This document shows positions 1 to 62,289 of a stretch of 62,289 nucleotides of DNA, one piece after another (position 1 is the stretch's first letter; the number at the start of each line of letters is the position of its first letter). Made by a program: the position numbers and the translations under genes. Source of the DNA: a virus. Lineage: Duplodnaviria; Caudoviricetes. The stretch spans positions 1 to 62,289 of the IMG/VR virus record IMGVR_UViG_3300046009_002641. The stretch is one strand, 5' to 3'. The notes below the pieces were generated by a model. That model did not search any database. It saw nothing but the letters and a program-made list of their open reading frames with translations, and was not told where the DNA came from.

Positions 1-127
1 TGGCTAAGACCCCAGCTTGGCAGCGCGCCGAAGGCAAGAATCCAAAAGGCGGGCTGAATGAGAAGGGGCGCGCGTCATTGCGGGCTGAGGGGCATGACAT
101 CAAGCGTCCCCAGCCGGAAGGTGGCTC
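1..127 (+). repeat. Terminal direct repeat, copy 1 (circular assembly overlap)
   Basis: 1-127 is identical to 62159-62285; the match breaks at base 128; unit genome about 62158 bp. Confidence 0.95.
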
Positions 128-3100
128 AAGGCGCGATAGCTTCTGCGCCCGCATGAAGGGCATGAAGAAAAAGCTGACGTTGTCTGAAACTGCCAATGAT
201 CCCGATAGCCGGATCAATAAGTCGCTTCGGGCTTGGAACTGCGCCGATGGTGGTGCGGTTGATTCGTATAATGCAGTTCAAAAAGCCGCTAGAACAGATC
301 CTAGTGCGCCCTATGGCGTTGTGGATATGGGAGATAAGATCATTGTCGGTTCTCCGCACGGAGAACAAATTCCCTTGTCTGATGATTTGAGGGCAAGGAT
401 ACAGGATGTCGCTGGCAAAAGTGGCGCTTGGTATGAGGGATCTGGTGGAGACATTGAAGGAAACAGGAAACTTATTCCTAGCTACAGAGGCTCTTGGGAC
501 GATCAGGTCGCCAGATCAATTGAGGGATATCCTGTCGAATACATGGTCCCCATGTTTAGCAACGTGGAGGTCAATAAGCCGCATGAGATATATGCCAGCC
601 CTGATCGGTCGATATTTGATAGCATCGTGGCTAATCAGGATAAGGCAAAGTATTTCAAGGATCGGCGGTTTGACGCTGATGCGTTGCGTGATTTCTTGAC
701 GCAAGGCAGTGAAAAAGACACTGATCTTGTAAAGATGTCCCAGCTTCCGGCGACGAAGGAAAACCTGAGCAAGTTCTTTTCCACAGGCGAACGTCTTATG
801 TGGCCTGATAACTGGCAGGAATATCCCAACCGTCTTGGTAAGATGGCCAAGCGGTTTGAAGAATCGCGGAACAAGTATCTGCTAAATGCTCCTCCGGGCG
901 TTTATGTCACTGGCGCAGGACACATCCCAGAACTTCGCGGGATGAATAAGGATCTTAAGGTTATTGGTGGCGAAAGAGCCAGTGAAGCGGACGGTGGCCC
1001 TGTTTTTCACAAAGGCCGTGATGAAGCTCATATTAATTTTCAAGTCGCTAAGCCGGGGCCGCATACGACTCAGCTAGGTATTGAGGAGCCATATTTCCGT
1101 CGCTGGCTGTCTGAGAATCAGATCCCGTTTGATCCGAATGAGGCTAAGCCCGACTACGACATGCGTGGCTATTATCGCGCCGCCATGGCTGGAGATCCGC
1201 GCACGGCGACTGAGATCAACGCCAACGATCATCAGCGACATTTCCCGGATGTGTGGAAAACCCCGTCGCATGAAACATTCTCCGCCCAGAGCCAATACGC
1301 CACACCGAATGCCCCCGATTGGAATGAGCAAGATCAGCTAGTCGATAAGGCTGGTCGCGTCTTATATGATGAGCGCATGGGTCGTGACGATGGTGGTGCG
1401 GTTGATTCGTATGCCGCTGTGCAAGAAGCGGCCAAAGGCGGTGAGGTTTGGGATAAGCCCCGCCCCAAGAAGCTGGGCAAGCCTGAGCCGCTGAGCAGCA
1501 AAGAAAAGGCCAGCGCCAAAGCTGCGGCCAAGGCTGCTGGTCGTCCGTATCCTAACCTAATCGACAATATGCGGGCTGCTAGGGCGGATGGTGGCGAGGC
1601 TGATCCGTATGAATCGGTTCAGCAGGCTGCCAATCCAGATTCTGGGATGGAAAGATTTTCCCAAGAGGACATTAACCGCGCGGCCCATGGCGCTACGCCT
1701 GCTGTTCCGCCTTTGACGGTTATTGAGAACGCCGCACCGGCTAGCCCTGTGTCTGATGCTATGCGTGGGGCGTATAATGCTGCGGTTCCTCCAACCGCCA
1801 GATTGTTTGCTGAAAGCGCAATGGGCGCTCATAGCCCGATCACTGAGCGTGATTTTTCCCCATCCGATATTCAAAACATGAAGGATCGACTGGCTGAACA
1901 ACAACAGTTTAATGCCAGAAGAGAAAAAAATCTTCAAACAATCCAAGATACGATGACGCCTGAAGCATACCGTCATTATCAGGCTATGACTGATCAGCCG
2001 ATTGGCAGTGATGAAGATTATCGACGGTATATGGCCCACAACGCTGAGGCCATTAAAACATTTCAGGATACCCGTGGTCAGACAGGCGTTCCATATGGGA
2101 CGACGTTTGGCAAAGAGGATCAGCCTAATCAGCCTCTTAGTGTTTATTCGCCTGAACAGGGCAACCTTCTGACGTCGTTGCAGAGATCATATACTGATCC
2201 GGGCTATCGCACGGGCATGACCCTTGGTCGGTTTAATGTTTATGACACTCCTCAAGGTCGCGTGGCAGTTGATAATTATGATTTTAGAGGTAGGAAACAG
2301 TCGTGGTCAGACGTTGTCAAAGGCTTTCAAGAGCAACCGTTTGTAACTGCTCTTCGTGGATCAATCCCGACGGTATTTCCTAATATTGATCGTCCAGTTG
2401 CGGTCAATTTGGATAAGCCCGGTAACTATACTTACACCGGAAAGGCTATCCTTACCCCCGGTTCTTACTTAGAACCTGAACAAACGCAAACGCCTAAGCG
2501 CGACGATATCGCTGACTACAGAACTAAAACGCCGGGATTCCATCAATTCAATCAGATTGCAATAAACAGCAGGACGCCTGATGTAACGGTTCCTCTTCCC
2601 CCGCGCCGTCCGACGTCCTTTGCCGATGGCGGTGAAGTTATCGGTGATAAAGTCGAAGGCGATGTCCAGTTCGCAGAGGATGATCCCTACGCCAAGGTTC
2701 AGGAAGCTGCCAAGCTTCCCATGATGGCGCAGAACGACTTTGCCATGCGTATGCCGCAGCCAGAAGTCCGCTATGACACTGGCCCGCAGCCGGGTGAGGC
2801 TACCCTTAAAGGGTATGAACCGACGATTCGTGAGCAAATCGCCCAGAAGCTAATGGGTGAGCAGTCCCCGTCTCCTGAACGTCGCCAATTTGTTGAGGGC
2901 CTTATGGGAACCTCCGGTATTGGTGAACGCAGCATGGGTGTTGCCGACTTTATTCCTTTGGCTGGACAGGCGTTGCAAGCTCAGGAGTCGTATCAATATC
3001 GTGATCCTAAAGGATTTTTGCTTGCTACTGTCCCTGTGCCGGGGGCCAATATTGAGGGCAAAATAGCTCAAGGCGCTGCCGCCGCTGCTGAACGTGCTAT

Positions 3101-6011
3101 GGTTGGACAGGCTGCTCAACAGATGACGAAATCACAGTCTCAGGCCGCCATGAAGCAGGCTTGGGAGACTGGGCAAGGTAACGCAGACAAGTATCGTAAT
3201 TGGCAGCACCAATGGAATGTTGAGCAGGGGCCGCAATATACGGTTGCCCAGCCTGCTCCGGCGGCGGTTCCAGCTATGGGGCACAATATGCCGCCTGAAA
3301 CAATCCCGGTTGACTACAATCGTATCGTCAATCCGGCTGGATTCTACAGCCTTGGCCATGAGGTTGCTTCAACGCAACTACCTGATACGGTTCGCACTTG
3401 GCAAGAGATGCAATCCCTTCTCAAAAAGGGCGGCGTCAAAGATGAGGAAATGCAGTTTGCTGGCCTCCTTGGAATGAACCCGGCGACAAAAATCAGCCGC
3501 GATGAAATAGCGCAGGCGTTTGAGCGTAATTTTCCGCAAGTCGAAACGGTGTGGAAACGCAGTTCAGCCCCCGTCCCGGCTGAGAGAATTAATCAGGCTG
3601 TCCAAAATCGGACGCAGGCTCAAAATGATTTGCGTGATGCGAATACTAACCTTTGGAACGCCGCAAATCCTACCCATCAAGAAGATCCGGTTTTGAATAT
3701 ACGCGGGGACGAAACTCCTTGGAGCCTCCCTGATTTAAGAACCGCTTTAATGAATGATCGTGTCAGGTTTGATGATCTTGACGAACATGTTAGAGGCCCT
3801 GCTATGGACTGGCAGGATGCTTGGCGTCGGTATCAAAATGCTGAATCTCAGGTTCGCAATATAGAAGCGCCTACTAGGCCGGAAATGGCTCCGAAATGGG
3901 AGAAATACACGCATTCGGGCGGAACTGATTACTCAGAATCAGTCTTGAGATTGCCGTATAACAACCCGGCTTCGTTTAGGCACATTGCCCCTGAGATTGA
4001 AGTCAAATACTCAGACCAACACGCTGCGTTGAAAGAAAAGCTTTTTAATCTCAAGGAGTCTTATCAAGCTCAAAGATTGAGCGATAATCAGCAGTTTAAT
4101 GCCGCAATGGATGCGTATAAACAACGGTTTTACGATAAATTAATGAATGAAGCGTTGGAATCTGGTTGGTCGCCAGAAGATGCAATGCGTCATGCTAAAA
4201 AGTTTGTCAACGATACCAGTTATAGTGGAATGGCTAATTATCTGGGTGAACCTTATCCACGGGATCTGGATTATATGAGTCCTAGATCTGAGCAGCTAAA
4301 CGAAGAATTATATAAAACCAGAGAAGAAATAGGCGTTCTTACTAATAAAATGCTGGATGAATCGCGCGCTTTGGCTGGGCATCCGTCATATACTGAACAG
4401 GTTTATCGCCACGAAAGCCACCTTGGTAATATAGACAACCCTCTGCTTCACCAGCGTTGGAAAGAGCGCGTTGGGCCGGAGGGCGAGCGCATCTTGTCCA
4501 ATGAGGAGTTCCAAAGCGACCTTGGCCAAGAAGGCGCTGAAAGAGGCTTTAAAGATCCGACTGCCGATAAACGGCGAGTGGAGCTTGAGCGCCAGCGGGA
4601 TGCTTTGCAGAAAGAATGGGATAATGAACAGCGCAAACTGTTGGAAGAAACTAACGCAAAGTCTGCTGCTGTTATGCGCCAAAAGCGCGATGAGATTAAA
4701 CAGGTTACAGATGCTTATAATCAAACAAATCAATTAAGAAGCGCCTTTGACGCATATAATGAACAACTTGCTGCGATTGACGACAAGTATGCGCCTTTGT
4801 TGCAGCCGTTTAAAGATCAGCACAACGCGGCCAGTCAGCAGCTTGCCGCCAAGTATAAGCCAGAGAGCAAACGTCTGAACGACGCGATTGCGGCCATTAA
4901 ACAGCAGGGCGATGTTCCGTTGTTCCCTCATGTCGGCAGCACCGATCAGTGGGTTGAGCTTGGCGCGAAACACGCCCTGCAACACGCCCTTGAGAGTGGT
5001 CACGACAAGATATTTATCATGGGCGGTCAAGAGCAGGCCCGTCGTTGGCAATCTGGGTTGAGGCAGGCAGTTGATAATATTCGATGGGAAGGAGAGGCTA
5101 AACCTTGGAAAGGGTTTGGAACCATCGAAGAACAGGACGCCGCTGAGGAAAGATTTAAAAAGGCTAAAGAAGCACTGTCTAGCACTCTCCACAATGATCG
5201 CAGCTATGATGAGATTGTTAGAGAATTTAATGATGCTCAGGCTGCCATGAGGGACACTGTTCCTGGCTGGGGTCGGAGTGCTTACGATAAGCCTGACCCT
5301 GAAAAAGAGGGATTTAGGACTGTTTACGCAAAACCCTCTAACTATAGCCGTGATGCAAAATTTGTCATTGATAGGAATGGCAATATTATTGACTCATCGC
5401 TATCCAATGTTAAAGGGAAAAAATTAAAAGATGCCGTTGGCGGAGATTTAGCCAAACGTATTATGAGTGAAGAATCCGGCAATATTCCCATGAAAAATTA
5501 TGTTATGGGCGCTGAAGGTTACACTCAACACTATGAGCGAAAAGTCCCGTCTATATACAAAGACATCATCAAAAAATATTTAAAAGTTAATCCCAAAGTT
5601 GAAGCTGGGGCGATTGTGGAGCGCGGAGTGGAGTCAAATGAGATTCCGCCATGGGGTCAGTTAGAACGCCTTGGTTACGGAAAATGGAAAATCAATTTCC
5701 CTGACGGATCATTCCGTGACGATCTATCACGCGAAAAGGCAAACCGGCTTATTGAGCGTGGTAAACAAAACTTTGAGGCCATGGGCCGCACTTGGGAATC
5801 TAAAAACGTCCCGCCGATTGAAGGCCCTCACGGCACCTACATCCACATCACGCCCGAAATGCGGGAAGCTTATCAGCGGATTAAAAAAGAACGCGGGTCC
5901 GTGTTCCCCGGATATGCTGAGGGTGGGGCGGTTGTAAACGGTAGTGATCCGTATGATAATATGCGGTCATTATCTAGGAATTTTCCCCGCGCGCGGCGGG
6001 TTTCTCATTAG
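1..6011 (+). CDS. Giant (~2000 aa) mosaic virion/internal protein; modules joined by ADGG-type linkers; true start at 62158 (MAKTPAWQRAEGKNPKGG...)
   Basis: Open frame from 62158 through the junction; basic N-terminal module ending WNC (DUF6321-like), TraB/TIKI-like module, DYDMRG...HFPD module, EVWDKPRP...NLIDNMRAAR module, large C-terminal EEFQSD-motif domain; lies directly after portal. Confidence 0.85.
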   Translation, partial: AKTPAWQRAEGKNPKGGLNEKGRASLRAEGHDIKRPQPEGGSRRDSFCARMKGMKKKLTLSETANDPDSRINKSLRAWNCADGGAVDSYNAVQKAARTDPSAPYGVVDMGDKIIVGSPHGEQIPLSDDLRARIQDVAGKSGAWYEGSGGDIEGNRKLIPSYRGSWDDQVARSIEGYPVEYMVPMFSNVEVNKPHEIYASPDRSIFDSIVANQDKAKYFKDRRFDADALRDFLTQGSEKDTDLVKMSQLPATKENLSKFFSTGERLMWPDNWQEYPNRLGKMAKRFEESRNKYLLNAPPGVYVTGAGHIPELRGMNKDLKVIGGERASEADGGPVFHKGRDEAHINFQVAKPGPHTTQLGIEEPYFRRWLSENQIPFDPNEAKPDYDMRGYYRAAMAGDPRTATEINANDHQRHFPDVWKTPSHETFSAQSQYATPNAPDWNEQDQLVDKAGRVLYDERMGRDDGGAVDSYAAVQEAAKGGEVWDKPRPKKLGKPEPLSSKEKASAKAAAKAAGRPYPNLIDNMRAARADGGEADPYESVQQAANPDSGMERFSQEDINRAAHGATPAVPPLTVIENAAPASPVSDAMRGAYNAAVPPTARLFAESAMGAHSPITERDFSPSDIQNMKDRLAEQQQFNARREKNLQTIQDTMTPEAYRHYQAMTDQPIGSDEDYRRYMAHNAEAIKTFQDTRGQTGVPYGTTFGKEDQPNQPLSVYSPEQGNLLTSLQRSYTDPGYRTGMTLGRFNVYDTPQGRVAVDNYDFRGRKQSWSDVVKGFQEQPFVTALRGSIPTVFPNIDRPVAVNLDKPGNYTYTGKAILTPGSYLEPEQTQTPKRDDIADYRTKTPGFHQFNQIAINSRTPDVTVPLPPRRPTSFADGGEVIGDKVEGDVQFAEDDPYAKVQEAAKLPMMAQNDFAMRMPQPEVRYDTGPQPGEATLKGYEPTIREQIAQKLMGEQSPSPERRQFVEGLMGTSGIGERSMGVADFIPLAGQALQAQESYQYRDPKGFLLATVPVPGANIEGKIAQGAAAAAERAMVGQAAQQMTKSQSQAAMKQAWETGQGNADKYRNWQHQWNVEQGPQYTVAQPAPAAVPAMGHNMPPETIPVDYNRIVNPAGFYSLGHEVASTQLPDTVRTWQEMQSLLKKGGVKDEEMQFAGLLGMNPATKISRDEIAQAFERNFPQVETVWKRSSAPVPAERINQAVQNRTQAQNDLRDANTNLWNAANPTHQEDPVLNIRGDETPWSLPDLRTALMNDRVRFDDLDEHVRGPAMDWQDAWRRYQNAESQVRNIEAPTRPEMAPKWEKYTHSGGTDYSESVLRLPYNNPASFRHIAPEIEVKYSDQHAALKEKLFNLKESYQAQRLSDNQQFNAAMDAYKQRFYDKLMNEALESGWSPEDAMRHAKKFVNDTSYSGMANYLGEPYPRDLDYMSPRSEQLNEELYKTREEIGVLTNKMLDESRALAGHPSYTEQVYRHESHLGNIDNPLLHQRWKERVGPEGERILSNEEFQSDLGQEGAERGFKDPTADKRRVELERQRDALQKEWDNEQRKLLEETNAKSAAVMRQKRDEIKQVTDAYNQTNQLRSAFDAYNEQLAAIDDKYAPLLQPFKDQHNAASQQLAAKYKPESKRLNDAIAAIKQQGDVPLFPHVGSTDQWVELGAKHALQHALESGHDKIFIMGGQEQARRWQSGLRQAVDNIRWEGEAKPWKGFGTIEEQDAAEERFKKAKEALSSTLHNDRSYDEIVREFNDAQAAMRDTVPGWGRSAYDKPDPEKEGFRTVYAKPSNYSRDAKFVIDRNGNIIDSSLSNVKGKKLKDAVGGDLAKRIMSEESGNIPMKNYVMGAEGYTQHYERKVPSIYKDIIKKYLKVNPKVEAGAIVERGVESNEIPPWGQLERLGYGKWKINFPDGSFRDDLSREKANRLIERGKQNFEAMGRTWESKNVPPIEGPHGTYIHITPEMREAYQRIKKERGSVFPGYAEGGAVVNGSDPYDNMRSLSRNFPRARRVSH

Positions 6012-6052: not shown

Positions 6053-7051
6053 ATGGCACATCCCCACTCTAAAGAGGCCAAAGAAGGCCACGCCAAGAAA
6101 CTGGCTGGCTACGGCGGCAAATCCAAATCATTTGATGACAAGTCGTCTTGGGACGGCTTGAAGGGCCTGAACAATGATGAGCAGGCTGGCCTGAAGATCA
6201 TCGACAAAGAGCCGACGCTTTCTGAAGAAACTGCCCCCCGCATCATGCGTAAACGTGGCGGCGTGGTGAAGGGCAAGATGGCTGTGAAGCGTCTGGATAA
6301 GGCGTCTCGTGGCAAGAAGCGCGCTAATGGCGGTGAGCTTCCCCCTCCGGAAGAAGGCATGAAGGCTGCGGCCCGCGAAAGCGGCATGAGCTACGAAGAA
6401 GCCCCCAAGGAGGGCGGTATCACTGGCGCTGGTGAGGCTGCTGAGTCCTCTGGCCGTCAGGAAGATCGTCATGGTGGCCGCGTCCATAAGGCGGCTGGCG
6501 GCAAGATGTCTCACGAAGATGAGGCTGAGGATCGTTCGCTGATCAAGAAAATGGTCAAGGGTTCGTCGCTTACCGGAAAGAAAGCTGGCGGCGAAGTCAA
6601 GACCAAGAGCTATACGCCTGAGAACAACGTCACCAAGTCGGCTCGCGTTGGCCGCGCGTCAGGTGGCGCAGCTAAAGGCAAGACAACGGTGAACATCATC
6701 GTTGGTGGTGGCAAGGATCAGGCTCCGATGATGCCTCCGGCTCCGGGCGCTCCGGCTGCTCGCCAGCCGATGCAAGCCCCGCCGATGATGCCTCCGCAGG
6801 GTATGCCGATGGCTCCGGCTATGGCTGCTCCTCCGATGGCTGCTCCGCCGCCGGCCCCGCCGATGGGTGGCGCTCCGGGCATGGGTATGCCTCCGGGTGG
6901 TATGCCGCTGGGCCGCAAGCGTGGTGGTCGTATCCGTGATGCTTCGGACCTTACGGCTGGCGCTGGTTCGGGTGAAGGACGACTGGAAAAGATTGAACTT
7001 CAGGAAGCCAAAGGCTATCCGCCGAAAAGCGCCCGCAAGGGTTTCAAGTAG
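6053..7051 (+). CDS. Basic, Pro/Met/Gly-rich low-complexity virion-associated protein with 7 xxxGG motifs
   Basis: Operon position; RKRGG, RANGG, DRHGG, KAAGG, KKAGG, RASGG, RKRGG; long PM-rich tract. Confidence 0.8.
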   Translation: MAHPHSKEAKEGHAKKLAGYGGKSKSFDDKSSWDGLKGLNNDEQAGLKIIDKEPTLSEETAPRIMRKRGGVVKGKMAVKRLDKASRGKKRANGGELPPPEEGMKAAARESGMSYEEAPKEGGITGAGEAAESSGRQEDRHGGRVHKAAGGKMSHEDEAEDRSLIKKMVKGSSLTGKKAGGEVKTKSYTPENNVTKSARVGRASGGAAKGKTTVNIIVGGGKDQAPMMPPAPGAPAARQPMQAPPMMPPQGMPMAPAMAAPPMAAPPPAPPMGGAPGMGMPPGGMPLGRKRGGRIRDASDLTAGAGSGEGRLEKIELQEAKGYPPKSARKGFK

Positions 7052-7465: not shown

Positions 7466-7882
7466 ATGCCGTCAGTCGCAATGTTGCATGAGGTTGACCC
7501 GCGTGAGGCAATCCTTGCTAGAGTTGGCTCCCTTGATGGGATTGAAATGTTTGGTAGCGACCTTTTGATTGCTATCTACAAGCGTCCGACAAAGACAAAG
7601 TCGGGAATTATCCTCACTGACAAGCACTTAGAAGAGGATTTGCATCAGGGTAAGGTGGGTTTGGTCCTTAAAATGGGTCCGACAGCCTATCTTGATGATG
7701 AGGGCAAGTCGTTCCGCGACATTAAAGAGGGTGATTGGGTGGTTTTCCGCCCCTCTGATGGCTGGCGCGTCACGCTGAACACGCTTCGCGGCACTTATTC
7801 CAAGGATGATACGGTCGATTGTCGCATTGTTAGCGACATTTCTGTCCGTTCACGCCTGAACGACCCCGATTCCATCTACTAA
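7466..7882 (+). CDS. groES: Phage co-chaperonin GroES-like protein
   Basis: KTKSGIIL mobile loop, G.VLKMGP, IKEGDWVVF motifs. Confidence 0.85.
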   Translation: MPSVAMLHEVDPREAILARVGSLDGIEMFGSDLLIAIYKRPTKTKSGIILTDKHLEEDLHQGKVGLVLKMGPTAYLDDEGKSFRDIKEGDWVVFRPSDGWRVTLNTLRGTYSKDDTVDCRIVSDISVRSRLNDPDSIY

Positions 7883-10266: not shown

Positions 10267-11181
10267 ATGGCTGTTAATCTTAGCGCCATCCGCGATCTGC
10301 TCCTTCCGGGGCTTCGCGGCGTTGAGGGTAAATACCCTCAGATCCCGTCTCAGTGGGATAAAGTGTTCGAAAAAGCCAAGTCAAACATGGCTTTGGAACG
10401 CACTGCTGAAATGCGTTACCTTGGCCTTGCCGCTATCAAGACTGAAGGCGGCGCGGTCAGCTTCGATAACAACGCGAGTGAGCGTTACGTCTATAACCAA
10501 GAGCACTACGAAATTGGTTTGGGCTACGCGATCACCCGTAAGGCTATCGACGACAATCTGTATAAGACCCAGTTCACGCCCACGAACCTTGGCCTGATCG
10601 AATCTTTCGGTCAGACGAAGGAGATCTACGGCGCGAACATCCTGAACACTGCGACGACGTATAATGCGTCGGTTGGCGGTGACGGCGTTTCGCTGTGTTC
10701 GACGGCCCATCCGATTGATGGTGCGACGATTGCGAACCGTCCGACCGTCGATGCGGATCTGAACGAAGCTTCGCTGCTTAATGCAATGATCGCCATTCGT
10801 TCGAACTTCAAGGACATCGCTGGCCTGAAGATCTTCGCTCGCGGTCGCAAGCTGATTGTTCCGCCGCAGTTGGAGCCGGTTGCTATTCGTCTGACGAAGA
10901 CGGAACTGCGCCCCGGCACGGCGAACAACGACGTCAATGCCATCCTCACGACCGCTGGCGGTCTGCCGGAAGGCTACATGGTCAACGACTTCTTGACGTC
11001 GCAGTATGCTTGGTTCCTGCTCACCAACATCAAAGGTCTGGTGTATATGGAACGTGTTCCCTATGAAATGGACATGCAGGTCGATTTCACAACTGACAAT
11101 CTGTTGGTTAAGGGCTACGAGCGTTACAGCTTCGGCTACTACAACTGGCGTTCGATCTTCGGTTCGTTCCCGACGTCGTAA
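10267..11181 (+). CDS. Major capsid protein
   Basis: TAAGGAG RBS; LLLPGL, LGYAITRKAIDDNLY, LIVPPQL, ERYSFG..WR motifs; followed by terminator. Confidence 0.9.
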   Translation: MAVNLSAIRDLLLPGLRGVEGKYPQIPSQWDKVFEKAKSNMALERTAEMRYLGLAAIKTEGGAVSFDNNASERYVYNQEHYEIGLGYAITRKAIDDNLYKTQFTPTNLGLIESFGQTKEIYGANILNTATTYNASVGGDGVSLCSTAHPIDGATIANRPTVDADLNEASLLNAMIAIRSNFKDIAGLKIFARGRKLIVPPQLEPVAIRLTKTELRPGTANNDVNAILTTAGGLPEGYMVNDFLTSQYAWFLLTNIKGLVYMERVPYEMDMQVDFTTDNLLVKGYERYSFGYYNWRSIFGSFPTS

Positions 11182-25803: not shown

Positions 25804-25957
25804 GAACATCACCGTTACGCTGACGGTTGCTGAGTGGAATGTTATCCTAAATGCTTTAGGAAAGCAGCCCTACATCGATGTTGTTAATATCATTCAGGCC
25901 ATGAATGAGCAGGCCAAGGATCAGCTTAATCCTCCGAAAGAGCCTGAATCTGAATGA
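25793..25957 (+). CDS. Small hypothetical protein
   Basis: GGAG RBS before GTG 25793; E.N.IL.ALG..PY motif. Confidence 0.65.
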   Translation: MDNKNITVTLTVAEWNVILNALGKQPYIDVVNIIQAMNEQAKDQLNPPKEPESE

Positions 25958-31459: not shown

Positions 31460-34400
31460 ATGGGCAGCAAAGGCAGCGGCGGCGGCTCCAATCAGATGGG
31501 CTTTCAGGCGACAACCTCAACGTATTCGCCTAACCCGGAAGCGATGGCGGCATACCGCAATGCTCTTGGCATGGCTGAGAACGTAGCGCAGATCCCGTAT
31601 GAGCAATATCAGGGTCAAATGACCGCTGGCTTTACGCCGGATCAGTTAGCTGCTTTTCAGGGAACGCGCGAGATGCAAGGCATGGCCCAGCCTTACATCA
31701 ATGCTGCGACATCCGCTGTAAATCAGTCTTTGCAGCTTGCCGATCCGCGTAACTTTACGCCTGCCGCGCTTGATCAGTATTACAACCCTTATCAGCAGAA
31801 CGTCATCAACTCTACTAGAGCAATGATGGCTCAGCAAAATGCCCAGCAGCAAAATGATCTTACTGCCCGCGCCATTCAGCAGGGCGCTTATGGCGGTGAT
31901 CGTTCTGGCGTTGCCCGTGCGGCTTTGATGGGACAGCAGTCTCTTGCCAATCAGCAAATTCTGTCCGGTCTCCAGCAACAGGGTTATCAGCAGGCTGTTG
32001 GCCAATTTAACCAGCAACAGCAGCAGGCGGTTAACGCCGCTCAGCAAGGGGCTTATAGCCTTGGCCAGCTTGGCCTTCAGGGCCAGCAGGCTGCGCTTCA
32101 GGGCATTCAGGCGCTTCTTGGCACAGGCGGTATGCAGCAGAACCTTGCTCAGCAGCAGCTTTCTGCGGCCTACAATCAGTGGCTTCAGGCCCGCGCCTAT
32201 CCTTACCAGCAAGCCAATTTCTATTCTGGCATTGTGTCTGGCATTGCTCCGAATATGGGCGGAACAACCAACACGATGGGCTTTGGCACGGGCCAAACGC
32301 AGCAGCAGCAGGCGTCTGGTGGCGGCGGTGGCGCTGGACTTCTGACGTCGGCTCTTTCGTTCTTGCCGATGCTCATGGGCGCTTCTGATAGAGACGACAA
32401 AACCGATATTCAGTATTTGGGCAAGGACGAATCGGGCGAGAAAATTTATTCATATCGCTACAAGGGCGATCCAAAGTCTTACCCCAAAGTTGTCGGCCCG
32501 ATGGCGCAGGACATTGAAAAGGAAGATCCTGATCGCGTTTATGAAGTTGGTGGCCATAAGATTGTTGAGGGCCTTGGACATCTTGCTCCTAGTCAGCGCG
32601 AAGGCCGCGCCGATGGCGGCGGTATGTATAGCTCCCCGACTGTAGATCCGTATGCTTATCAGCAGTCTCCTTATCAGGCCGATCAGCGTTTTGACCCCGG
32701 ATTTTCCAAGGGTCTTGAGGCGGTCATTGATCCGGCCATGGCTAATAAGATTGCCTCTAGTCGCTGGGTCTCTCAGCCCGCTGATCAGAGCCAAAGCCAG
32801 CAGACGCTTGATGAGCAGATGCAATACCGGAATCCGGAATTTAATCTGTTCCCGTATTTCCAAGACGGTCAACAGTCTCAAAGCCCGTTCGATGGTAATT
32901 CTGAAAAGCATGAAATGTATGCCGATGGCGGTGGCGTTGGCGGTTTAGGCGACTTAATGAAGGCTAAGACCCCGTTTGGCGCTGCTAACCCTTATGTTGA
33001 GGCCATGCCGATTACCCCCGGCAAAGCTCATATTCCTGAACCTCCGAAAATGAACTGGCTGCCCGGCCTTCCGGGCGGTGGCCCGTCCAGCGGAGGCGGT
33101 GGTGGTGGCGGCGGCGGTGGTGGAGGCATGCCAAAGCTTCCTAAGATGGGTGGATCTAAGGCTGCTTCGGCTGGCGCTGCGGCCCCGTCTGAAGCTGCGT
33201 CGGCTGAACACGCTGCGGCTCCTACGGCTGAGGCTTCGGCTCCCGCTCCGGTTGCCGACGCTGGCGCTGCGGCTGCTCCGGCCATGGATGCTGGTCTTGG
33301 TGGCATTGGCGGTGGTCTGGAAAATATCTTTTCCGGACTTGGCGGCATGTTGCCGATGTTCAATCACGGTGGCCGTGTGCATATGGCTGATGGTGGCGCT
33401 GGCGCTGCCGGCGGTATCGGCTCCAGTGGATTTGCTGGCGCTGAGGGCCTTGGCGCTGGCGCGGTGAAGGGAGTGATTGGCGAGTCTGGTTCTGGAACGC
33501 TTGGCTCTTTGGCTCCGGCCATCAAGCTTGCCCCGACTGAAGGCCCGTTTGGCAAAATGTCTTACGGCAACTGGCTTGATCGGGCTATGTCGCTTGATCC
33601 GGGCCGTCAGTTGACGCCGGAAGAACAGGGGCAGCCTTCGCTTCCCAAGCCGGGAACGCAGGGCAACCGTCCTTGGCTTCCGGGTGAGACGCAAAGTCAG
33701 GTCATCGGAAATCAGAATCCGGGCCTTGATCCGTTGATGATGATGATGGCTGGCGGCAAAGGCGCCACAAATCTTGCTCTTGGTGCGCTGATTGGCCAGC
33801 AGAACGCGGCTAATTCTGCCCGTGAACAACAGGCTGCGGCTCAGGCCAAGCGCGCTTCGATTATGTCCAGTCCGCAAACTCCGGCTGGCTATTCCCAGTC
33901 GCTGGCAAGCAATATCGTCAATCCGCGCACGGGCCTGTTCAACGTGAACTACGGCACCTACTACATGCCGCACTATGCGGAAGGTGGTCGCGTTGGAATG
34001 GCTGATGGTGGTGAGCCGTCCCGTTATAATCCGACTGCCCGTGATCTGGATTACTGGGCTAGAACCGTCGCCAAAGAAGCCGCAGATCAAGGTGACAAGG
34101 GCATGGCGGCTGTCGCTTATGCCATCAAGAACCGTCTTGAAAGCGGCAAATATGGCCGTTCAATTGCTGACGTTGTGACGGCCCCAAAGCAGTTTTCGCC
34201 TTGGAATCGTGAAATGCGCGGCACTGCTGCTGATCCGCGTCGTATGGACACCAATAGCCCTACTTATAAAAAGGCTATGGAGATTGTTCAGGGCGTTGCG
34301 TCTGGCAAGATTGCTAATCCGATTGGATCTGCAGTCAACTTTGCTAACCCGGCTCTTTCCAGTGCGCGTTCTTTACGGACTTGGATTAATCCCATGATCC

Positions 34401-36757
34401 GTAGCGGAAACGCTATTCGCATCGGCGAACATGTATTTGGGACGCCGGGCGGCGCTTCTACTGGCGCGCGTCGTTATGCGGTTGGGGCCCCCTACGGCTC
34501 GCCGTTTAGCACTCCGACGACGGTGGCAAAGGTCCATCCGGTGACGGGTGAGCATCCTGTTGTTGCGGCTGATCAGCGTCTGGCTTCGCAGCCTACGCCT
34601 GCCCCTGCTCAGGTAGTCCCGACGGGTAGCGTTTTAAATCGCATTAATCCGGCAGATCCTTCTGGTCCTCTTCTTGGGCAATTTCCGATCCCGCCTTCGG
34701 CTAAGATGCCACAGACCGCTCCGGCTCCGCAAAAACCCGGTTTTAGTCTTGCGAGCCTTAGCCCTGTTGGATCGGCACAAGCTGATGAAGCTGGACCGTC
34801 TATGCCAGAAGGTGTGATCCCGCGAATCCGTCCCGGTTTTGAGTCTATTCAGGGTCCAAGCCAGTTGGCTGGGTTGCAGGCGACGAAGCAGCTTAATCCT
34901 AGCTCCTTGAACGCCGCCATGGGAACGCCCAAGACTGGTATTTCAGGTCTTGATATGGAAAGCTTCACTCCTCCCGGAATGGCCGGTGATCGTGACCTTA
35001 TGGGCGCGCAGCCGCAGGGATTTGGCACATTTGCACCGTCTGATATGGGTCCGCAGGCGTCCCAACCCGACATGCCTTGGGATCGTCCAATTGTTGCTGA
35101 AAGTGAGCCTGAGCGCGCTGCTCCTTCCCCGGCTCCGAAACGTGCTGAGCCTGCCGCTCCGGCTGGTGAGAATGGCAAGTTCTTCGGTGACTACCGCGAC
35201 TATGAACCTTGGGCTAGTGACCCGATTGGCAAGGCTCTTGATGAAATCATGGGTGAGAAGCCCATGTCCTTGCACAAGGGCGCGTCTATGTGGGACGTCG
35301 GCGGCGGCGAAACATCCGGTGGCGGCTTCGACCTTGGCGATATTGGCGATCTGTTTAAGCAATATGGCGGTCGCGTCGGCATGGCTGACGGTGGAGATCC
35401 TCTTGCTAATCTTGATCCTGAAATGCTCAGCGATGAGCCGATGGATGAGGACCAAGCTGGGTTTACGTCAGAAGCCCTTGCCGCCGATGATCAGGTTGAC
35501 CCGAATGACCGTATTGTTGCGACAGACAGACCGGAGCAGCGCGAACAGCCGCAGCAGCCGGGTTTTGGAGGCCTGACTTCTCCGATCACCGGCAAGCCGA
35601 TGACTTGGGGTCCGGCCTCTCAGGCGCTTTTGGCGGCTGGACTTGGCATGATGGCCTCTGATCGTGTGAATCCGCTTCAGGCGATTGGCGAAGGTGGCTT
35701 GCGTGGTCTTGAGTATTATCAGAGCGCCTCTGCCCAAGAACGCGCACAGCAGGCTGCTGAGGCCCGCTTAGCCCGTGAAATGGAGCAGCGCCGCACAACT
35801 GAGCAGCATTGGCAAACCGAAATGCAGCACAAGCGCAATGTTCTTGAGGCTGCGGAACGCGCGCGTCGGACGGGTAAGATCGGCGTTATCGGGACTGATG
35901 AATTTGGCTATCCGATTCGCGGGTGGGTGTCTGGCGAAAACGTCGGCCAGCCGCTTGAGCCGTCGCGTGGATCTACGTCGCGCACGACTCAAACCGGCGC
36001 GGAAGGTCTGCATGGTGAGGAGTTCTTGAATACGCTTCCGGGCGATACTGCGCTTCAGGTTAAATCAATTGCTGAAGGCAGGCAGGCAATTCCTCCGGGC
36101 CGGTATTCTCAGCCCCTCCGTCGTGCTGTTACTCAGTATGATCCTGATTATTCTGAACAGCGTAAGAAGGTTCGTGACTCATTTAATGCGACTGAGCCTA
36201 CTAAGGCGGGCGGTCAAATCATTGCTGGCAACACGGCTATTGGTCATCTTGGCGAATTGTCAGATGCGGCTCATGCCCTTGGCAATACCGGCTTCAAAGC
36301 TTGGAATTGGGCTAAGCAGCACGGCAAGAGCATGACTGTCGGTAATCCAAAACTTGAGGCTTTTGAGGCGACCAAGGATCGTTTCATTGAAGAAGCTACG
36401 AAGTTCTATCGTGGAACTGGCGGAACTGAAGCCGACATTCAGCGCGCGATTGGTCGCATGAGTTCGGCTAATACTCCGCAGGAACTTGATGCGGTTATTG
36501 CTCAGGAAGCCAAATTGTTTGAGAGCAAGGTCAATGCTCTTGAGGATCAGTGGCGCAAGACGATGAAGTCTGACGCCATTGAAGTTGGCGACATCAACTA
36601 TGGTGTTGTCCGTGGTCACGCCAAGGATGCTCTGGAAAAAATTCGCTCTCGCGTCTCTGGTGAATCTGGAAGCATAGAGGCCATGGCCAAGAAATATGGC
36701 ATGACGCCTGAGCAGCTTCGTGCAAAATATGAAGAAATGAAAAAGGGACGGCAATAA
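31460..36757 (+). CDS. Giant ejection/DNA-transfer protein with S74-type autocleaving domain, SleB-like cell-wall hydrolase and 8 xxxGG motifs
   Basis: Gln-rich N-terminus (YNPYQQNV, GAYGG.R); SDRDDKTDI...G.MAQDIE; ART..KEA..QG..GM.AVA..I.NR...QFSPWN. Confidence 0.85.
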   Translation: MGSKGSGGGSNQMGFQATTSTYSPNPEAMAAYRNALGMAENVAQIPYEQYQGQMTAGFTPDQLAAFQGTREMQGMAQPYINAATSAVNQSLQLADPRNFTPAALDQYYNPYQQNVINSTRAMMAQQNAQQQNDLTARAIQQGAYGGDRSGVARAALMGQQSLANQQILSGLQQQGYQQAVGQFNQQQQQAVNAAQQGAYSLGQLGLQGQQAALQGIQALLGTGGMQQNLAQQQLSAAYNQWLQARAYPYQQANFYSGIVSGIAPNMGGTTNTMGFGTGQTQQQQASGGGGGAGLLTSALSFLPMLMGASDRDDKTDIQYLGKDESGEKIYSYRYKGDPKSYPKVVGPMAQDIEKEDPDRVYEVGGHKIVEGLGHLAPSQREGRADGGGMYSSPTVDPYAYQQSPYQADQRFDPGFSKGLEAVIDPAMANKIASSRWVSQPADQSQSQQTLDEQMQYRNPEFNLFPYFQDGQQSQSPFDGNSEKHEMYADGGGVGGLGDLMKAKTPFGAANPYVEAMPITPGKAHIPEPPKMNWLPGLPGGGPSSGGGGGGGGGGGGMPKLPKMGGSKAASAGAAAPSEAASAEHAAAPTAEASAPAPVADAGAAAAPAMDAGLGGIGGGLENIFSGLGGMLPMFNHGGRVHMADGGAGAAGGIGSSGFAGAEGLGAGAVKGVIGESGSGTLGSLAPAIKLAPTEGPFGKMSYGNWLDRAMSLDPGRQLTPEEQGQPSLPKPGTQGNRPWLPGETQSQVIGNQNPGLDPLMMMMAGGKGATNLALGALIGQQNAANSAREQQAAAQAKRASIMSSPQTPAGYSQSLASNIVNPRTGLFNVNYGTYYMPHYAEGGRVGMADGGEPSRYNPTARDLDYWARTVAKEAADQGDKGMAAVAYAIKNRLESGKYGRSIADVVTAPKQFSPWNREMRGTAADPRRMDTNSPTYKKAMEIVQGVASGKIANPIGSAVNFANPALSSARSLRTWINPMIRSGNAIRIGEHVFGTPGGASTGARRYAVGAPYGSPFSTPTTVAKVHPVTGEHPVVAADQRLASQPTPAPAQVVPTGSVLNRINPADPSGPLLGQFPIPPSAKMPQTAPAPQKPGFSLASLSPVGSAQADEAGPSMPEGVIPRIRPGFESIQGPSQLAGLQATKQLNPSSLNAAMGTPKTGISGLDMESFTPPGMAGDRDLMGAQPQGFGTFAPSDMGPQASQPDMPWDRPIVAESEPERAAPSPAPKRAEPAAPAGENGKFFGDYRDYEPWASDPIGKALDEIMGEKPMSLHKGASMWDVGGGETSGGGFDLGDIGDLFKQYGGRVGMADGGDPLANLDPEMLSDEPMDEDQAGFTSEALAADDQVDPNDRIVATDRPEQREQPQQPGFGGLTSPITGKPMTWGPASQALLAAGLGMMASDRVNPLQAIGEGGLRGLEYYQSASAQERAQQAAEARLAREMEQRRTTEQHWQTEMQHKRNVLEAAERARRTGKIGVIGTDEFGYPIRGWVSGENVGQPLEPSRGSTSRTTQTGAEGLHGEEFLNTLPGDTALQVKSIAEGRQAIPPGRYSQPLRRAVTQYDPDYSEQRKKVRDSFNATEPTKAGGQIIAGNTAIGHLGELSDAAHALGNTGFKAWNWAKQHGKSMTVGNPKLEAFEATKDRFIEEATKFYRGTGGTEADIQRAIGRMSSANTPQELDAVIAQEAKLFESKVNALEDQWRKTMKSDAIEVGDINYGVVRGHAKDALEKIRSRVSGESGSIEAMAKKYGMTPEQLRAKYEEMKKGRQ

Positions 36758-59926: not shown

Positions 59927-62152
59927 ATGGAACATTATAATCTTCGTCAGTCCGGTCCCGGCCAAGCGTCGTTGCCGGATGAGGAAACCGTTAACCTTGG
60001 CGGTCTTGAGGAAGCGGTCAAAGACGCCAGCATTCTTCAGGTTGAACTGTCTGACGGTTCGGTGAGCATTAACTTTGCGCCTCATGTCAAAGCTGGTGCG
60101 GGCGACGATACGGACCATGATGAGAACCTTGCCCTGCATGTCGATAGCGGCGAGCTTGCTAATGTGGCCGACAATCTGCTGCGCCATATCCGCGAGGACA
60201 TCACCCGACAGGAACAGCGCCTTCAGGACGTTGTGAAGGGCATAGATCTACTGGGCATTAAGCTGGAGGAACCGCGTGGCGAACCGAACGATGAGGGCAT
60301 ATCGGTTGTGCGTCATCCCTTACTCCTTGAAGCCGTCCTGCGGTTCCAAGCGAACGCGCGTGGTGAAATGCTTCCGGCTGACGGACCTGTCAAAGTTGCG
60401 AATGATGGGGATCAGACGGTTGAGCTAGACGCCGTCGCCAATGCTCTTGAGCAGGACATGAACCACTATCTGACGGTGGGCGCTCCTGAGTATTACCCTG
60501 ACACGGATCGTATGTTCTTCACGCTTGGCCATGGCGGCGAGGCGTATAAGAAGGTTTATTTCCATCCGATCAAGCGTCGTCCTGTCTCTGAGACGGTGGA
60601 CCGCAAGGATCTGATTCTTTCCGATGGCGCGGTGAGCCTTGAGGCTTGTAGCCGTGTCACGCATCGCTCCAAAATGCGCCCGTCAGAGATCAAGCGTATG
60701 CAGCTTGCTGGCGTCTGGCGTGAAGCCCCGCTTGGACCACCGGCCATGTCTACGATGGCGACCAACACGGTTGATGTGGCGCTTCAGAATATCTCTGGCT
60801 TTGATCCCAAATCGACGGTTGAGCCCGAAGAAGTCGATAGAGAGATTTACGAATGTTATTGCGAGATTGACCTACGCGGTTATGAGCACAGTGAGGACGG
60901 CGAGGCTACTGGTCTTGCGTTGCCCTACCGTGTGACGATTGACAAGGATTCTAAGCAGATCCTTGAGATCCGCCGCTGGTGGGAGGAAGGCGATGATACC
61001 TACACCCGCAAAGAAGTTTTCGTGGAATACGTTTTTGTCCCAGCATTTCCCGGTGTTAACTTGGGTCTGCTGCATATCTTGGGAAATGCCACTCGCGCTC
61101 TTACTGCTGCTTGGCGTATTGCTCTGGACAATGGAATGCTGGCTAACTTCCCCGGCGGCATCATGGCGCGCAGCACCGGTAAGCAGCAGACGACGTCCAT
61201 CCGGGTTGGACCCGGACAGGTAGCGCCGATGGATGCTGATGGCGTTCCGCTCAAGGAAGCCTTCATGCCGCTGCCTTACCGCGATGTGACAGGCGGCTTT
61301 GTCCAGATCATCCAGAACGTAGAGCAGACATCTCAGAGGCTGGGCGGCACTGCTGAAACGGCTGTTGGCGAAGGCCGTAGCGATGCTCCGGTTGGCACCA
61401 CGATTGCCCTGATTGATCAAGCGACGAAGGTTCTGAGCGCGGTCCATAAGCGGATGCACACTGCCCAGCAGAAAGAGTTCGCTCTGCTGAAGGATCTGTT
61501 CAAGAAAGACCCGGAAGCTTTGTGGCGTTCAAACCGAAACCCGGCTTTTGAGCGTGATGTTGCCCGTCTTGAGGAAGCTCTGGCGAACAAGGACATTGTC
61601 CCCAAGGCCGATCCGAACACGGCTAGCCAGACGCTGCGTATCCAGAAGGCCATCGCCATTTACCAGATGGCTAAAGAAAATCCGGCGATGTTTAACCAGA
61701 AAGAGGTTTACACCCGGATCATGGGCATGGTCGGCATTGAAGATGCTGAGAGCCTGTTCAACAACTCTCCCGGCGGCCCGCCGCCGATTGACCCGATCAA
61801 GCAGATGGAAGCCAACGCCAAGCTTGCCGGTGTGCAGGCCAAGGTCGCTGAGATGTCCAGCCGCCAGCAGATCGCCGCTAGCCAAGAGCAGACCAAGATC
61901 GCCATGGCCCAAGCCAAGATGGCTGAGACGAAGGTGCGTGAAAAGGAGGTCGCTATCGATGCGGCTAATCACGCTGCGGATCGTCGGTCGAAGGAAGCTC
62001 TGGCTCAAGCAGATTTGCAGCAGTCCATGCTGGTTCACTCCGACAAGCTTCTGAAGGATCGTGCATCCATGCAGGCTGATGATGAGTATCGTCGTCAAGA
62101 AGCTGAGTTCAAGCGCCAACAGGCGATGCAGAAACCCCCGTTTGAGAGCTAA
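59927..62152 (+). CDS. Portal protein
   Basis: HPLLLEAVLRFQA.A..E..PA.GPVK, KKVY, PY.VTID, DNG.LAN.PGG, PVGTTIAL, SAVHKRMH; coiled-coil tail. Confidence 0.92.
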   Translation: MEHYNLRQSGPGQASLPDEETVNLGGLEEAVKDASILQVELSDGSVSINFAPHVKAGAGDDTDHDENLALHVDSGELANVADNLLRHIREDITRQEQRLQDVVKGIDLLGIKLEEPRGEPNDEGISVVRHPLLLEAVLRFQANARGEMLPADGPVKVANDGDQTVELDAVANALEQDMNHYLTVGAPEYYPDTDRMFFTLGHGGEAYKKVYFHPIKRRPVSETVDRKDLILSDGAVSLEACSRVTHRSKMRPSEIKRMQLAGVWREAPLGPPAMSTMATNTVDVALQNISGFDPKSTVEPEEVDREIYECYCEIDLRGYEHSEDGEATGLALPYRVTIDKDSKQILEIRRWWEEGDDTYTRKEVFVEYVFVPAFPGVNLGLLHILGNATRALTAAWRIALDNGMLANFPGGIMARSTGKQQTTSIRVGPGQVAPMDADGVPLKEAFMPLPYRDVTGGFVQIIQNVEQTSQRLGGTAETAVGEGRSDAPVGTTIALIDQATKVLSAVHKRMHTAQQKEFALLKDLFKKDPEALWRSNRNPAFERDVARLEEALANKDIVPKADPNTASQTLRIQKAIAIYQMAKENPAMFNQKEVYTRIMGMVGIEDAESLFNNSPGGPPPIDPIKQMEANAKLAGVQAKVAEMSSRQQIAASQEQTKIAMAQAKMAETKVREKEVAIDAANHAADRRSKEALAQADLQQSMLVHSDKLLKDRASMQADDEYRRQEAEFKRQQAMQKPPFES

Positions 62153-62158
62153 GACAAA

Positions 62159-62285
62159 TGGCTAAGACCCCAGCTTGGCAGCGCGCCGAAGGCAAGAATC
62201 CAAAAGGCGGGCTGAATGAGAAGGGGCGCGCGTCATTGCGGGCTGAGGGGCATGACATCAAGCGTCCCCAGCCGGAAGGTGGCTC
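62159..62285 (+). repeat. Terminal direct repeat, copy 2 (carries the 5' end of the giant ORF, ATG at 62158)
   Basis: Identical to 1-127; ATG 62158-62160 is in frame with ORF 78..6011 across the junction. Confidence 0.95.
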
Positions 62286-62289
62286 TCTC

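Follow-up and report, generated by a model that had tools for sequence, protein, structure and literature searches.

Polyvalent proteins are mosaic, multi-domain proteins for which packaging and injection are presumed, and embedded zincin peptidases have been proposed as their processors (Iyer, Burroughs, Anand, de Souza and Aravind 2017, PMC5512222). In T4, small basic proteins and enzymes are carried in the head, injected and marked by a short conserved peptide, the MKTY-type N-terminus that acts as a capsid-targeting sequence (PMC3012670). The large cargo proteins C1 and C2 (gp45/gp46) of crAss001 are stored inside the capsid, in partial association with the portal, and are ejected ahead of the DNA (Bayfield et al. 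2023, PMC10172136), and the MuF and SPP1 gp7 genes, which lie directly after the portal gene, combine a conserved part with variable effector domains (Jamet et al. 2017, PMC5576092). Among the components of the phage particle, polyvalent and ejection proteins are the least well understood, and how such cargo is loaded, ordered and released is an open question, most of all for phages with no known head protease. Here, we analysed the 62,289-bp virus record IMGVR_UViG_3300046009_002641 over its full length (the window), the genome of an uncultured, podophage-like freshwater (lake) phage in which the gene directly behind the portal gene encodes a giant protein. In this polyprotein, modules are joined by a short recurring peptide with two adjacent glycines, which we call the seam.

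We interpret the polyprotein as a phage-type polyvalent protein that carries interchangeable cargo modules behind the portal, with the seams as exchange points that are probably also processing or docking signals, and assign this reading a probability of roughly 0.5. The protein class is already known, and we found no literature description of the junction peptide. The main text of the polyvalent-protein survey (PMC5512222) neither describes such a peptide nor uses the word 'linker', while its supplementary architectures may include the family; the main text of the crAss001 atlas (PMC10172136) does not mention cleavage, linkers or Gly-Gly, and an ejection-protein review (PMC8954989) mentions neither linker nor glycine. 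Literature searches found no paper naming DUF6321, the Pfam family of the first module, and, among the papers listed, nothing relevant on double-glycine in ejection, cargo or polyprotein contexts or on conserved linkers or module boundaries of polyvalent proteins.

A fused chain of modules and seams

The polyprotein comprises at least six modules delimited by homology breakpoints, four of which (M1, M2a, M2b and M3) also occur as stand-alone genes. The comparison set consisted of twelve related IMG/VR loci (L-numbers) and 120 stored M3-containing proteins (P-numbers). In the window, the gene is organised as follows (positions in nucleotides, nt; lengths in amino acids, aa; ORF, open reading frame):

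62158..62289, plus strand: true start of the polyprotein gene (ATG at 62158), continuing to the record end; circular overlap
1..6011 (listed as 3..6011), plus strand: polyprotein ORF, 2,002 codons plus stop, 5'-open in the window
3..242, plus strand: M1, small basic module, DUF6321 (Pfam PF19846 at aa 11-78, 58.1 bits, E 1.4e-15)
243..290, plus strand: seam 1, ADGGAVDSYNAVQKAA, ADGG plus helix AVDSYNAVQKAA; breakpoint against L006, L007, L016, P0003 and P0009
291..986, plus strand: M2a, 232-aa globular module; stand-alone in L012-L015, in another order in L009-L011
987..998, plus strand: seam 1b, ADGG without helix (SEADGGPVFHKG); module junction
999..1385, plus strand: M2b, 129-aa module; homologue clusters, stand-alone or embedded
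1386..1433, plus strand: seam 2, DDGGAVDSYAAVQEAA, DDGG plus helix AVDSYAAVQEAA; 25 nt identical with seam 1
1434..1583, plus strand: M3, 50-aa Lys/Ala-rich basic module (KGGEVWDKPRP...NLIDNMRAAR); PHROG 34011
1584..1631, plus strand: seam 3, ADGGEADPYESVQQAA, ADGG plus helix EADPYESVQQAA
1632..2621, plus strand: M4, 330-aa module; in 6 of the 120 stored M3-containing relatives, absent from L006/P0009
2622..2711, plus strand: seam 4, (F)ADGG followed by an extended helix unit of 26 aa that ends DDPYAKVQEAA
2712..5915, plus strand: M5, 1,068-aa conserved body; in 14-18 of the 120 stored M3-containing relatives
5916..6011, plus strand: seam 5, (Y)AEGG...SDPYDNMRS, 27-aa C-terminal tail (AVVNGSDPYDNMRSLSRNFPRARRVSH) plus stop codon

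The initial annotation, made from the sequence without database searches, had placed a protein of about 2000 aa directly behind the portal gene. Indeed, read from the ATG at 62158 across the circle junction to 6011, the polyprotein has 2,003 aa and starts 5 nt past the portal stop codon (62150-62152). Its N-terminus, MAKTPAWQR, carries no MKTY-type tag, the chain contains no HExxH motif, and the only two Cys among 2,002 residues are the conserved pair of M1, the remainder being Cys-free. A frame of this length could in principle be an assembly chimera of several small genes, as M1, M2a, M2b and M3 all occur elsewhere as separate small genes and DUF6321 is common to many co-occurring phages, as shown by loose contig ends at 140-187. 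However, contigs from four other lake-water runs (X5-X8, from different coded studies) span every one of the six junctions, without a single differing letter in the pieces listed (bridging pieces 175-367, 809-1038, 826-1139, 1243-1477, 1523-1768, 2454-2782 and 5559-6011), and the same fused frames are present in the independent records L005-L007, L016, P0002, P0003 and P0009. These contigs and records confirm the frame across the junctions and make a one-assembly artefact highly improbable.

The motif [AD][DE]GG occurs at aa 81, 329, 462, 528, 874 and 1972 (nt 243, 987, 1386, 1584, 2622 and 5916). Five of these six copies continue with D-x-Y-x-x-[VM]-[QR]; the copy at nt 987 does not. All five linkers of the initial annotation were thus found where it had claimed them (the last AEGG at 5916), whereas the sixth, the ADGG at nt 987, which is also a module junction, had been overlooked. 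At the counterpart of seam 1b, protein P0002 runs from ADGG straight into the seam-2 helix, and M2b is absent. When the residues of the polyprotein were shuffled 20,000 times, the mean count of [AD][DE]GG was 0.26 and the maximum 4, compared with 6 observed copies, and even one copy of the extended motif arose in only 7 of the 20,000 shuffles, compared with 5 observed.

In general form, the seam reads x-[AD]-[DE]-G-G followed by a 12-residue amphipathic helix, which is AVD(S/P)YxxVQxAA in the lineage of the window; two window seams have an Arg immediately before [AD]DGG. Sister lineages have [hydrophobic]-x-[KRAD]-[DNSG]-G-G followed by x-[VI]-x-[DNK]-A-L-[RH]-[LI]-A-[KR], and in many cases a second GG closes the element. 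Their proteins carry the seam between all modules and also at the extreme C-termini and, without the leading GG, at the extreme N-termini. Seams also precede C-terminal tails, and both the end of M3 (NLIDNMRAAR-ADGG) and the C-terminal tail of the polyprotein (DPYDNMRSLSR) are variants of the seam helix.

The modules differ widely in how well they are represented elsewhere. The assignment of the first module as DUF6321-like, given in the initial annotation, agreed with the Pfam match, and M1 does exist as a stand-alone gene of 81-91 aa in Planktothrix phage Pag-Yong1, Pelagibacter phage HTVC033P and Synechococcus phage S-CREM1. The M1 region matches eight PHROG families, in six of which it forms the C-terminal end of the profile; it covers nearly all of the 99-position phrog_4689, and its match to phrog_727 stops 15 positions before the end. 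The polyprotein matches 491 cultured-phage records, and the matches listed (40 of 491) all cover aa 1-80, that is, DUF6321. A tblastn search with aa 97-2002 (1,906 residues) against cultured phages returned only two weak records at E<=1. Despite the freshwater origin of the locus, the relatives of M1 are mostly cyanophages and pelagiphages.

M2a occurs as a gene of its own at four IMG/VR loci (L012-L015; frames of 241-260 aa from stop to stop), where it ends ...IGGERAND exactly at the point at which the polyprotein goes on with ADGG. Its AlphaFold 2 (AF2) model, from a 7-row alignment, reached a predicted local distance difference test score (pLDDT) of 85.4 and a predicted template modelling score (pTM) of 0.81. 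Foldseek detected no PDB fold match at E<=0.001 (best 0.33), and the ESM Atlas held no usable match; BFVD contained one uncharacterised stand-alone phage homologue (E 2.7e-21). A TraB/TIKI-like protease fold, considered on the basis of GSxHG, YEG and GAGH, was rejected, since Foldseek gave 0 PDB matches at E<=0.001 and TraB-named BFVD proteins appeared only at E 0.31 and 2.2.

M2b belongs to a family of 818 representative clusters (E<=0.001), either stand-alone (97-220 aa) or within proteins of up to 4,492 aa. Among the best 150 of the 818 clusters, 65 proteins have at most 220 aa and 22 more than 1,000 aa, and the module may occupy any position. In the soil phage Tunturi_3 of Tunturiibacter, M2b forms the C-terminal ~115 residues of the 1,070-aa gp25 (L022 1151-4363), whose gene lies between a lytic tail-fibre gene and an endolysin gene and which has no Gly-Gly seam before M2b. 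For M3, the 55-position profile of PHROG 34011 matches aa 480-527, and homologues comprise 3,751 stand-alone clusters of 31-100 aa and 271 longer proteins of 145-1,917 aa; like M1, this module had been expected by the initial annotation to occur as a separate small gene. M5 has a highly conserved start (PMMAQ...RYDTGP...SPERRxFVEG) and a long coiled coil. The AF2 model of its C-terminal half was of moderate quality (pLDDT 72.7, pTM 0.39), with 0 PDB matches at E<=0.001. M2a, M2b, M4 and M5 gave nothing above noise in PHROG and Pfam, and none of the PDB chain sequences, all of which were searched with phmmer, matched the polyprotein at E<=1.

Module exchange among relatives

We compared the portal-adjacent gene among relatives with nearly the same structural genes. 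In L006, L007 and L016, the portal is 96-97% and the terminase 91-92% identical to the window at the amino acid level, and the identity of the major capsid protein (MCP) is 97% for L007 and 96% for L005. Despite near-identical portal and MCP, the gene after the portal encodes 2,003 aa in the window, 1,630 aa in L007 and 975 aa in L016; its position next to the portal gene is the same in L006-L009 and L016. The modules are arranged as follows (s, seam):

Window (2,003 aa): M1-s-M2a-s-M2b-s-M3-s-M4-s-M5-s-tail
P0003: M1-s-M3-s-M4-s-M5
L006 / P0009: M1-s-M3-s-M5
P0002: M1-s-M2a-s-M3-s-M4-s-M5'
L007 / P0004: M1-s-M3-s-M4-s-X-s-M5', X being an ART-PolyVal-like module inserted at seam 4
P0015: M1 and M3 with a new module of ~320 aa between them, followed by X and M5' as in P0004
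P0007: an extra GNAT module ahead of the tail
P0006: a module with HEVGH
L009-L011 / P0017: M3-s-M2a-s-M1, reversed order
L008: module set divided between two ORFs

Among the 83 proteins that hold both M1 and M3, M3 comes first in eight. Modules of the polyprotein therefore occur separately (M1, M2a, M2b and M3), differently combined and reordered in relatives, in agreement with the string of fused modules proposed at the outset and contrary to the possibility that they are never found apart.

At the DNA level, homology blocks end at window positions 291/1389, 1599/2625, 2632/2618 and 5913, homology to L007 and L016 resumes at 5913-5915, and the single seam of a shorter relative aligns with both flanking seams of the window. 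Identity to L007 changes abruptly along the locus: 90% in the portal gene, 73% in M1, 97% in M3, 76% in M4, 94% in the first 124 nt of M5, no match in the rest of M5, 79% in the C-terminal tail and 90% in the MCP gene. Across four relatives, the first 124 nt of M5 are 83-94% identical, and the remainder is replaced in L007. On these alignments, such sharply unequal divergence of adjacent modules is the signature of repeated exchange and not of simple deletion. Breakpoint clusters in the 11 closest proteins number 146, and 42 of them lie at most 3 aa from a GG, as opposed to 7% of random positions. Clusters backed by at least five protein pairs number 20, none of them more than 17 aa from a GG; 16 lie no more than 3 aa away, and the remaining four coincide with the distal end of the helix. 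Together, the breakpoints and architectures indicate that the seams are very probably where modules are gained, lost, replaced and reordered among related phages, as the initial annotation had foreseen for the post-portal loci.

Its second suggestion, that the linkers act as a recombination handle, stood only in part: the junctions are exchange points, and a handle at the level of DNA is conceivable only for seams 1 and 2. The exact 25-nt identity noticed initially (245-269 = 1388-1412) is real, and seams 1 and 2 are 84% identical over 45 nt, whereas the remaining seam pairs have only 6-12 nt in common. Thus, only the pair flanking M2 shares DNA long enough (25 nt) for homologous recombination. 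Recurrent breakpoints within M5 lie off the seams. The similarity of seams 1 and 2 fits a recent cassette insertion, or a deletion yet to happen. Codon usage at 27 seams of the window and its relatives was mixed, with Ala encoded by GCC (8), GCT (10) or GCG (4), the first Gly by GGT (13), GGC (13) or GGA (1), and the second Gly by GGT (8), GGC (12), GGG (5) or GGA (2). As third codon positions are free to vary, it is the peptide that is kept by selection, not a DNA site.

Probable cargo class and possible function of the seams

With the polyvalent class, the polyprotein shares the layout of a giant multi-module protein among portal and terminase late genes and the mosaic architectures. The domain repertoire of the class includes ART-PolyVal, PBECR, MPTase and LPD. 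Where the class has 2-15 unrelated domains per polypeptide and a virion-gene neighbourhood, the polyprotein has at least six modules and follows the terminase (57127-58932) and portal (59927-62152) genes from position 62158. It differs in lacking a Pfam-detectable polyvalent signature domain and a zincin. Same-locus proteins of relatives carry ART-PolyVal, PBECR5, GNAT, methyltransferase, phage tail lysozyme, SleB and GH19 domains, a set typical of phage-type polyvalent proteins (PMC5512222); PBECR5 in P0011 scored 73.7 bits, ART-PolyVal stayed below its cut-off of 31.2 bits in L007 (28.5) and P0120 (27.2), and PF18760 is precomputed for several others. P0108 joins a leader and M3 to a head-to-tail adaptor of the SU10 type (28.4 bits, cut-off 27).

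The first module adds a link to phage heads. The DUF6321 gene of S-CREM1 (gp179, L018 2965-3240) starts with MKTYNDFITE, matching 7 of 10 residues of MKTYQEFIAE in T4 ipII/ipIII. In ACG-2014f gp122 (L017 412-3243), L-x-E directly precedes both W-Q-R-K starts, L/I-x-E being the cleavage rule of the T4 prohead protease gp21. In T4-like phages, DUF6321 is thus preceded by a T4-type tag or L-x-E, and in the polyprotein its junctions carry the Gly-Gly seam. From these sequence contexts, DUF6321 of T4-like phages appears to be a peptide of the head interior, which is not a function that Pfam records for the family. Taken together, the domains of relatives, the adaptor fusion of M3 and the first module suggest that the polyprotein is likely to be capsid-carried cargo.

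Other described systems resemble the locus in part. If the polyprotein is cargo, as we infer, it shares with the T4 internal proteins (PMC3012670) the combination of small basic proteins or enzymes with a short conserved peptide mark; it differs in that its tag is internal and repeated and consists of Gly-Gly plus a helix, its modules are chained, and there is no gp21-like (S77) protease. The MuF and SPP1 gp7 genes share the place after the portal and the variable effector domains; the polyprotein has no Phage_Mu_F domain (Pfam, E<=1), many modules instead of one C-terminal toxin, and a repeated junction peptide. It would be a large virion-borne protein like C1 and C2 of crAss001, and differs in having no sequence match to PDB chains at E<=1. 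Short peptides that mark module exchange are also known from bacterial polymorphic toxins, each of which carries its demarcation motif (VENN of CdiA, PxxxxDPxGL of Rhs) a single time, and the leader peptides of secretion systems have a helix and then Gly-Gly at the site cut by a C39 peptidase. The seams resemble both, in marking exchange and in joining helix and Gly-Gly, respectively; in contrast to the seams, however, those peptides are present in single copy and belong to secretion systems, and no C39 peptidase was found in this genome.

For the seam itself, we propose a working model. The chain would be loaded into the procapsid, with the small basic peptides M1 and M3 travelling in the capsid with the DNA, M2a, M2b and M4 as putative globular cargo domains and M5 as the conserved body. 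The helix may act as a docking tag ahead of a cut beside Gly-Gly, as in T5 pb2, that a host enzyme or an unrecognised one would make, and cutting would release small DNA-associated peptides together with enzymes that exit alongside the DNA.

Stand-alone M3 provides the best indication that the seam exceeds a spacer. We examined 120 such proteins (P0123-P0242) of the 3,751 clusters. In all 119 cores, GG lies exactly one residue before the core, within the pentamers YAKGG (70), YAEGG (21) or YKKGG (14), behind a conserved leader of ~36 aa, and 109 of 110 proteins terminate within 6 aa after the module. The family consists of proteins of 60-96 aa with the leader ..SRGMG.I.PSKMP...RRD.TDFTQY-AKGG followed by the Lys/Ala-rich M3 peptide. 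The stand-alone proteins look like precursors of small DNA-associated head peptides. In longer M3 proteins, 101 of 115 cores have the same upstream GG, and after the module GG follows within 6 residues in 58, the protein ends in 42 and neither applies in one.

The motif is also concentrated within the genome: 12 of its 13 [AD][DE]GG copies (84 ORFs, 20,020 aa) lie in two giant proteins. The second is a 1,765-aa protein (31460..36757, plus strand) with six of them, all ADGG or AEGG and three as GG-RV-x-M-ADGG. Its N-terminal part is Gln-rich; Pfam places a Peptidase_S74 domain, a self-cleaving chaperone, at aa 309-360 and a SleB-type cell-wall hydrolase at aa 877-993. It is probably a second ejected, seam-bearing protein.

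This conservation bears on the view that the seam is a mere flexible hinge between independently folding domains that must unfold through the portal and tail channel, its apparent conservation arising from the spread of seam-plus-module cassettes while selection keeps in-frame, non-disruptive junctions. Gly-Gly is a classic flexible element, the chain is nearly Cys-free (2 in 2,002, both in M1), the 25 identical nt and 84% identity of seams 1 and 2 are as after a recent cassette insertion, and partial unfolding of crAss001 cargo during ejection has been proposed (PMC10172136). A hinge, however, has no need to keep Ala-Asp/Glu-Gly-Gly and a specific helix while third codon positions drift, to place GG before stand-alone M3 in 119 of 119 cores or before C-terminal tails, or to gather 12 of the 13 genome copies in two proteins, and we consider it unlikely.

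The helix points in a different direction. It stands alone, with no module beyond, at extreme N-termini (MSDxVxKALRLAK...) and C-termini (...DALRIAKRAK, then stop), and its type switches between sub-lineages (DPYxxVQxAA vs DALRLA) while GG stays. The seam might therefore be an uncut docking or packaging tag, in which the helix, freed by the glycines, binds a procapsid partner (scaffold, portal or coat), avidity arises from the multiple copies, and the chain stays whole through packing and ejection. In line with this, no head protease family was found, and N4 vRNAP and ArdC are transferred unprocessed (PMC5512222). Such a tag fits poorly with the ADGG junction at nt 987, which has no helix, with the gap of only 3-4 aa between M1 and M3 in 19 proteins, which suits GG and not a helix, and with the propeptide-like leader ending in GG of stand-alone M3 genes. 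Overall, an uncut tag appears rather unlikely.

A precedent for a cut at such a peptide is the T5 tape-measure protein pb2, which is cut after R1127 (Linares et al. 2023, PMC10038345). The sequence at this site is FVPR/AEGG (cut at the slash), with the only [AD][DE]GG, and one of five GG, in 1,220 aa. As in the reading proposed here, the cut directly precedes AEGG, the tetrapeptide of seam 5, and separates an enzyme domain from an ejected protein, and the Arg before the motif recurs in two window seams. In lambda gpH, FHFATGG and RGYATGG lie near the expected cut region; they were not counted, as the cut site and catalyst are not known (PMC12617516). Based on the T5 parallel, the M3 leader with Gly-Gly and the T4-type tags or L-x-E before DUF6321, we consider it possible, at slightly less than even odds, that the seams are cut. 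The role of processing or targeting signal given to the linker in the initial annotation is not demonstrated, and these pointers to it are circumstantial.

Several observations weigh against our reading of the polyprotein and its seams. Against a phage-encoded cutter, six-frame searches of the whole genome found no Peptidase_S78 or S49, the families of HK97/lambda-type prohead proteases, and no S77 or C39 at E<=1 (a control search with Peptidase_C39 gave matches in 7 of 14 genomes), and the polyprotein has no HExxH. The T5 protein is an unrelated siphophage tail protein with a single site, and its catalyst is not known. A helix at extreme N-termini without a preceding GG fits a tag better than a cut site. 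In the whole polyprotein, Pfam detects only DUF6321, and neither M2a nor M5 has a PDB fold match. As for exchange, only 16% of 1,394 breakpoint clusters in 74 diverse family proteins lie within 5 aa of a GG vs 14% at random, probably because local alignments fragment inside repeats, and breakpoints without GG recur within M5. In the wider M2b family, GG is found at only 21 of 117 boundaries upstream and 11 of 99 downstream, vs a background of 7.3%; the seam therefore characterises certain phage lineages and not the modules as such.

As a tentative extension, the x-A-[DE]-G-G seam, with or without helix, could be a general, undescribed address-and-cut code of phage proteins that exit through the tail, read by a host protease or an unrecognised phage protease. 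If so, the same code would mark the cut in the T5 tape-measure protein and separate polyvalent cargo modules, and would release a large family of small histone-like peptides packing with DNA (DUF6321 and the 3,751 M3 clusters with their YAKGG leader). One short peptide would then let phages plug any new enzyme into injected cargo. More generally, the seam would explain how anti-host enzymes are added without disturbing phage assembly, predicts mature chain ends for mass spectrometry, and offers a means to annotate cargo genes in metagenomes. If the link to T5 pb2 holds, it also bears on the decades-old question of which agent cleaves tape-measure proteins.

Genome record and gene neighbourhood

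The record has a CheckV completeness of 100, and positions 62159-62285 repeat 1-127 with 100% identity. Because of this 127-nt end repeat, we regard it as closed and circularly permuted; it is a complete phage genome, cut within the start codon of the large ORF. The source classes the record ends as linear despite the terminal overlap. The locus is listed for 24 public runs, labelled lake-water, freshwater, aquatic or riverine metagenomes, and a megablast search of the locus against cultured phages gave zero matches. Besides the polyprotein gene, the record contains the following genes:

57127-58932: large terminase
59927..62152, plus strand: portal gene, 741 aa (PHROG 1216 portal, E 4.5e-23; Pfam SU10_portal, E 1.7e-10)
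6053..7051, plus strand: next gene, 332-aa Pro/Met-rich protein with basic-x-Gly-Gly motifs
7466-7882, plus strand: GroES/Cpn10-like gene, 138 aa, in the head module, after the polyprotein and before the scaffold candidate
10267-11181: Mu gpT-like MCP
16524-19232, plus strand: 902-aa protein with collagen repeats
22895-25318, plus strand: 807-aa protein with SPRY and DUF7483 domains
25954-27015, plus strand: 353-aa glycosyltransferase-2 and TPR protein

Downstream of the polyprotein gene, the order is 332-aa protein, GroES-like protein, a 326-aa coiled-coil protein that we take as a scaffold candidate, two genes without assignment, and MCP; profile searches assigned the genes between polyprotein and MCP only to Cpn10 or to no family. 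NCBIfam gave no match for the polyprotein or three neighbouring genes. The 332-aa protein, which had no family match in Pfam, PHROGs or NCBIfam, adjoins the polyprotein gene in all relatives and contains ~10 basic-x-Gly-Gly motifs, and its versions in L005 and L007 have an extra EWEHSKKD... segment with a KKGG end. The SPRY/DUF7483, collagen-repeat and glycosyltransferase-2/TPR proteins are likely products of fibre or tail accessory genes.

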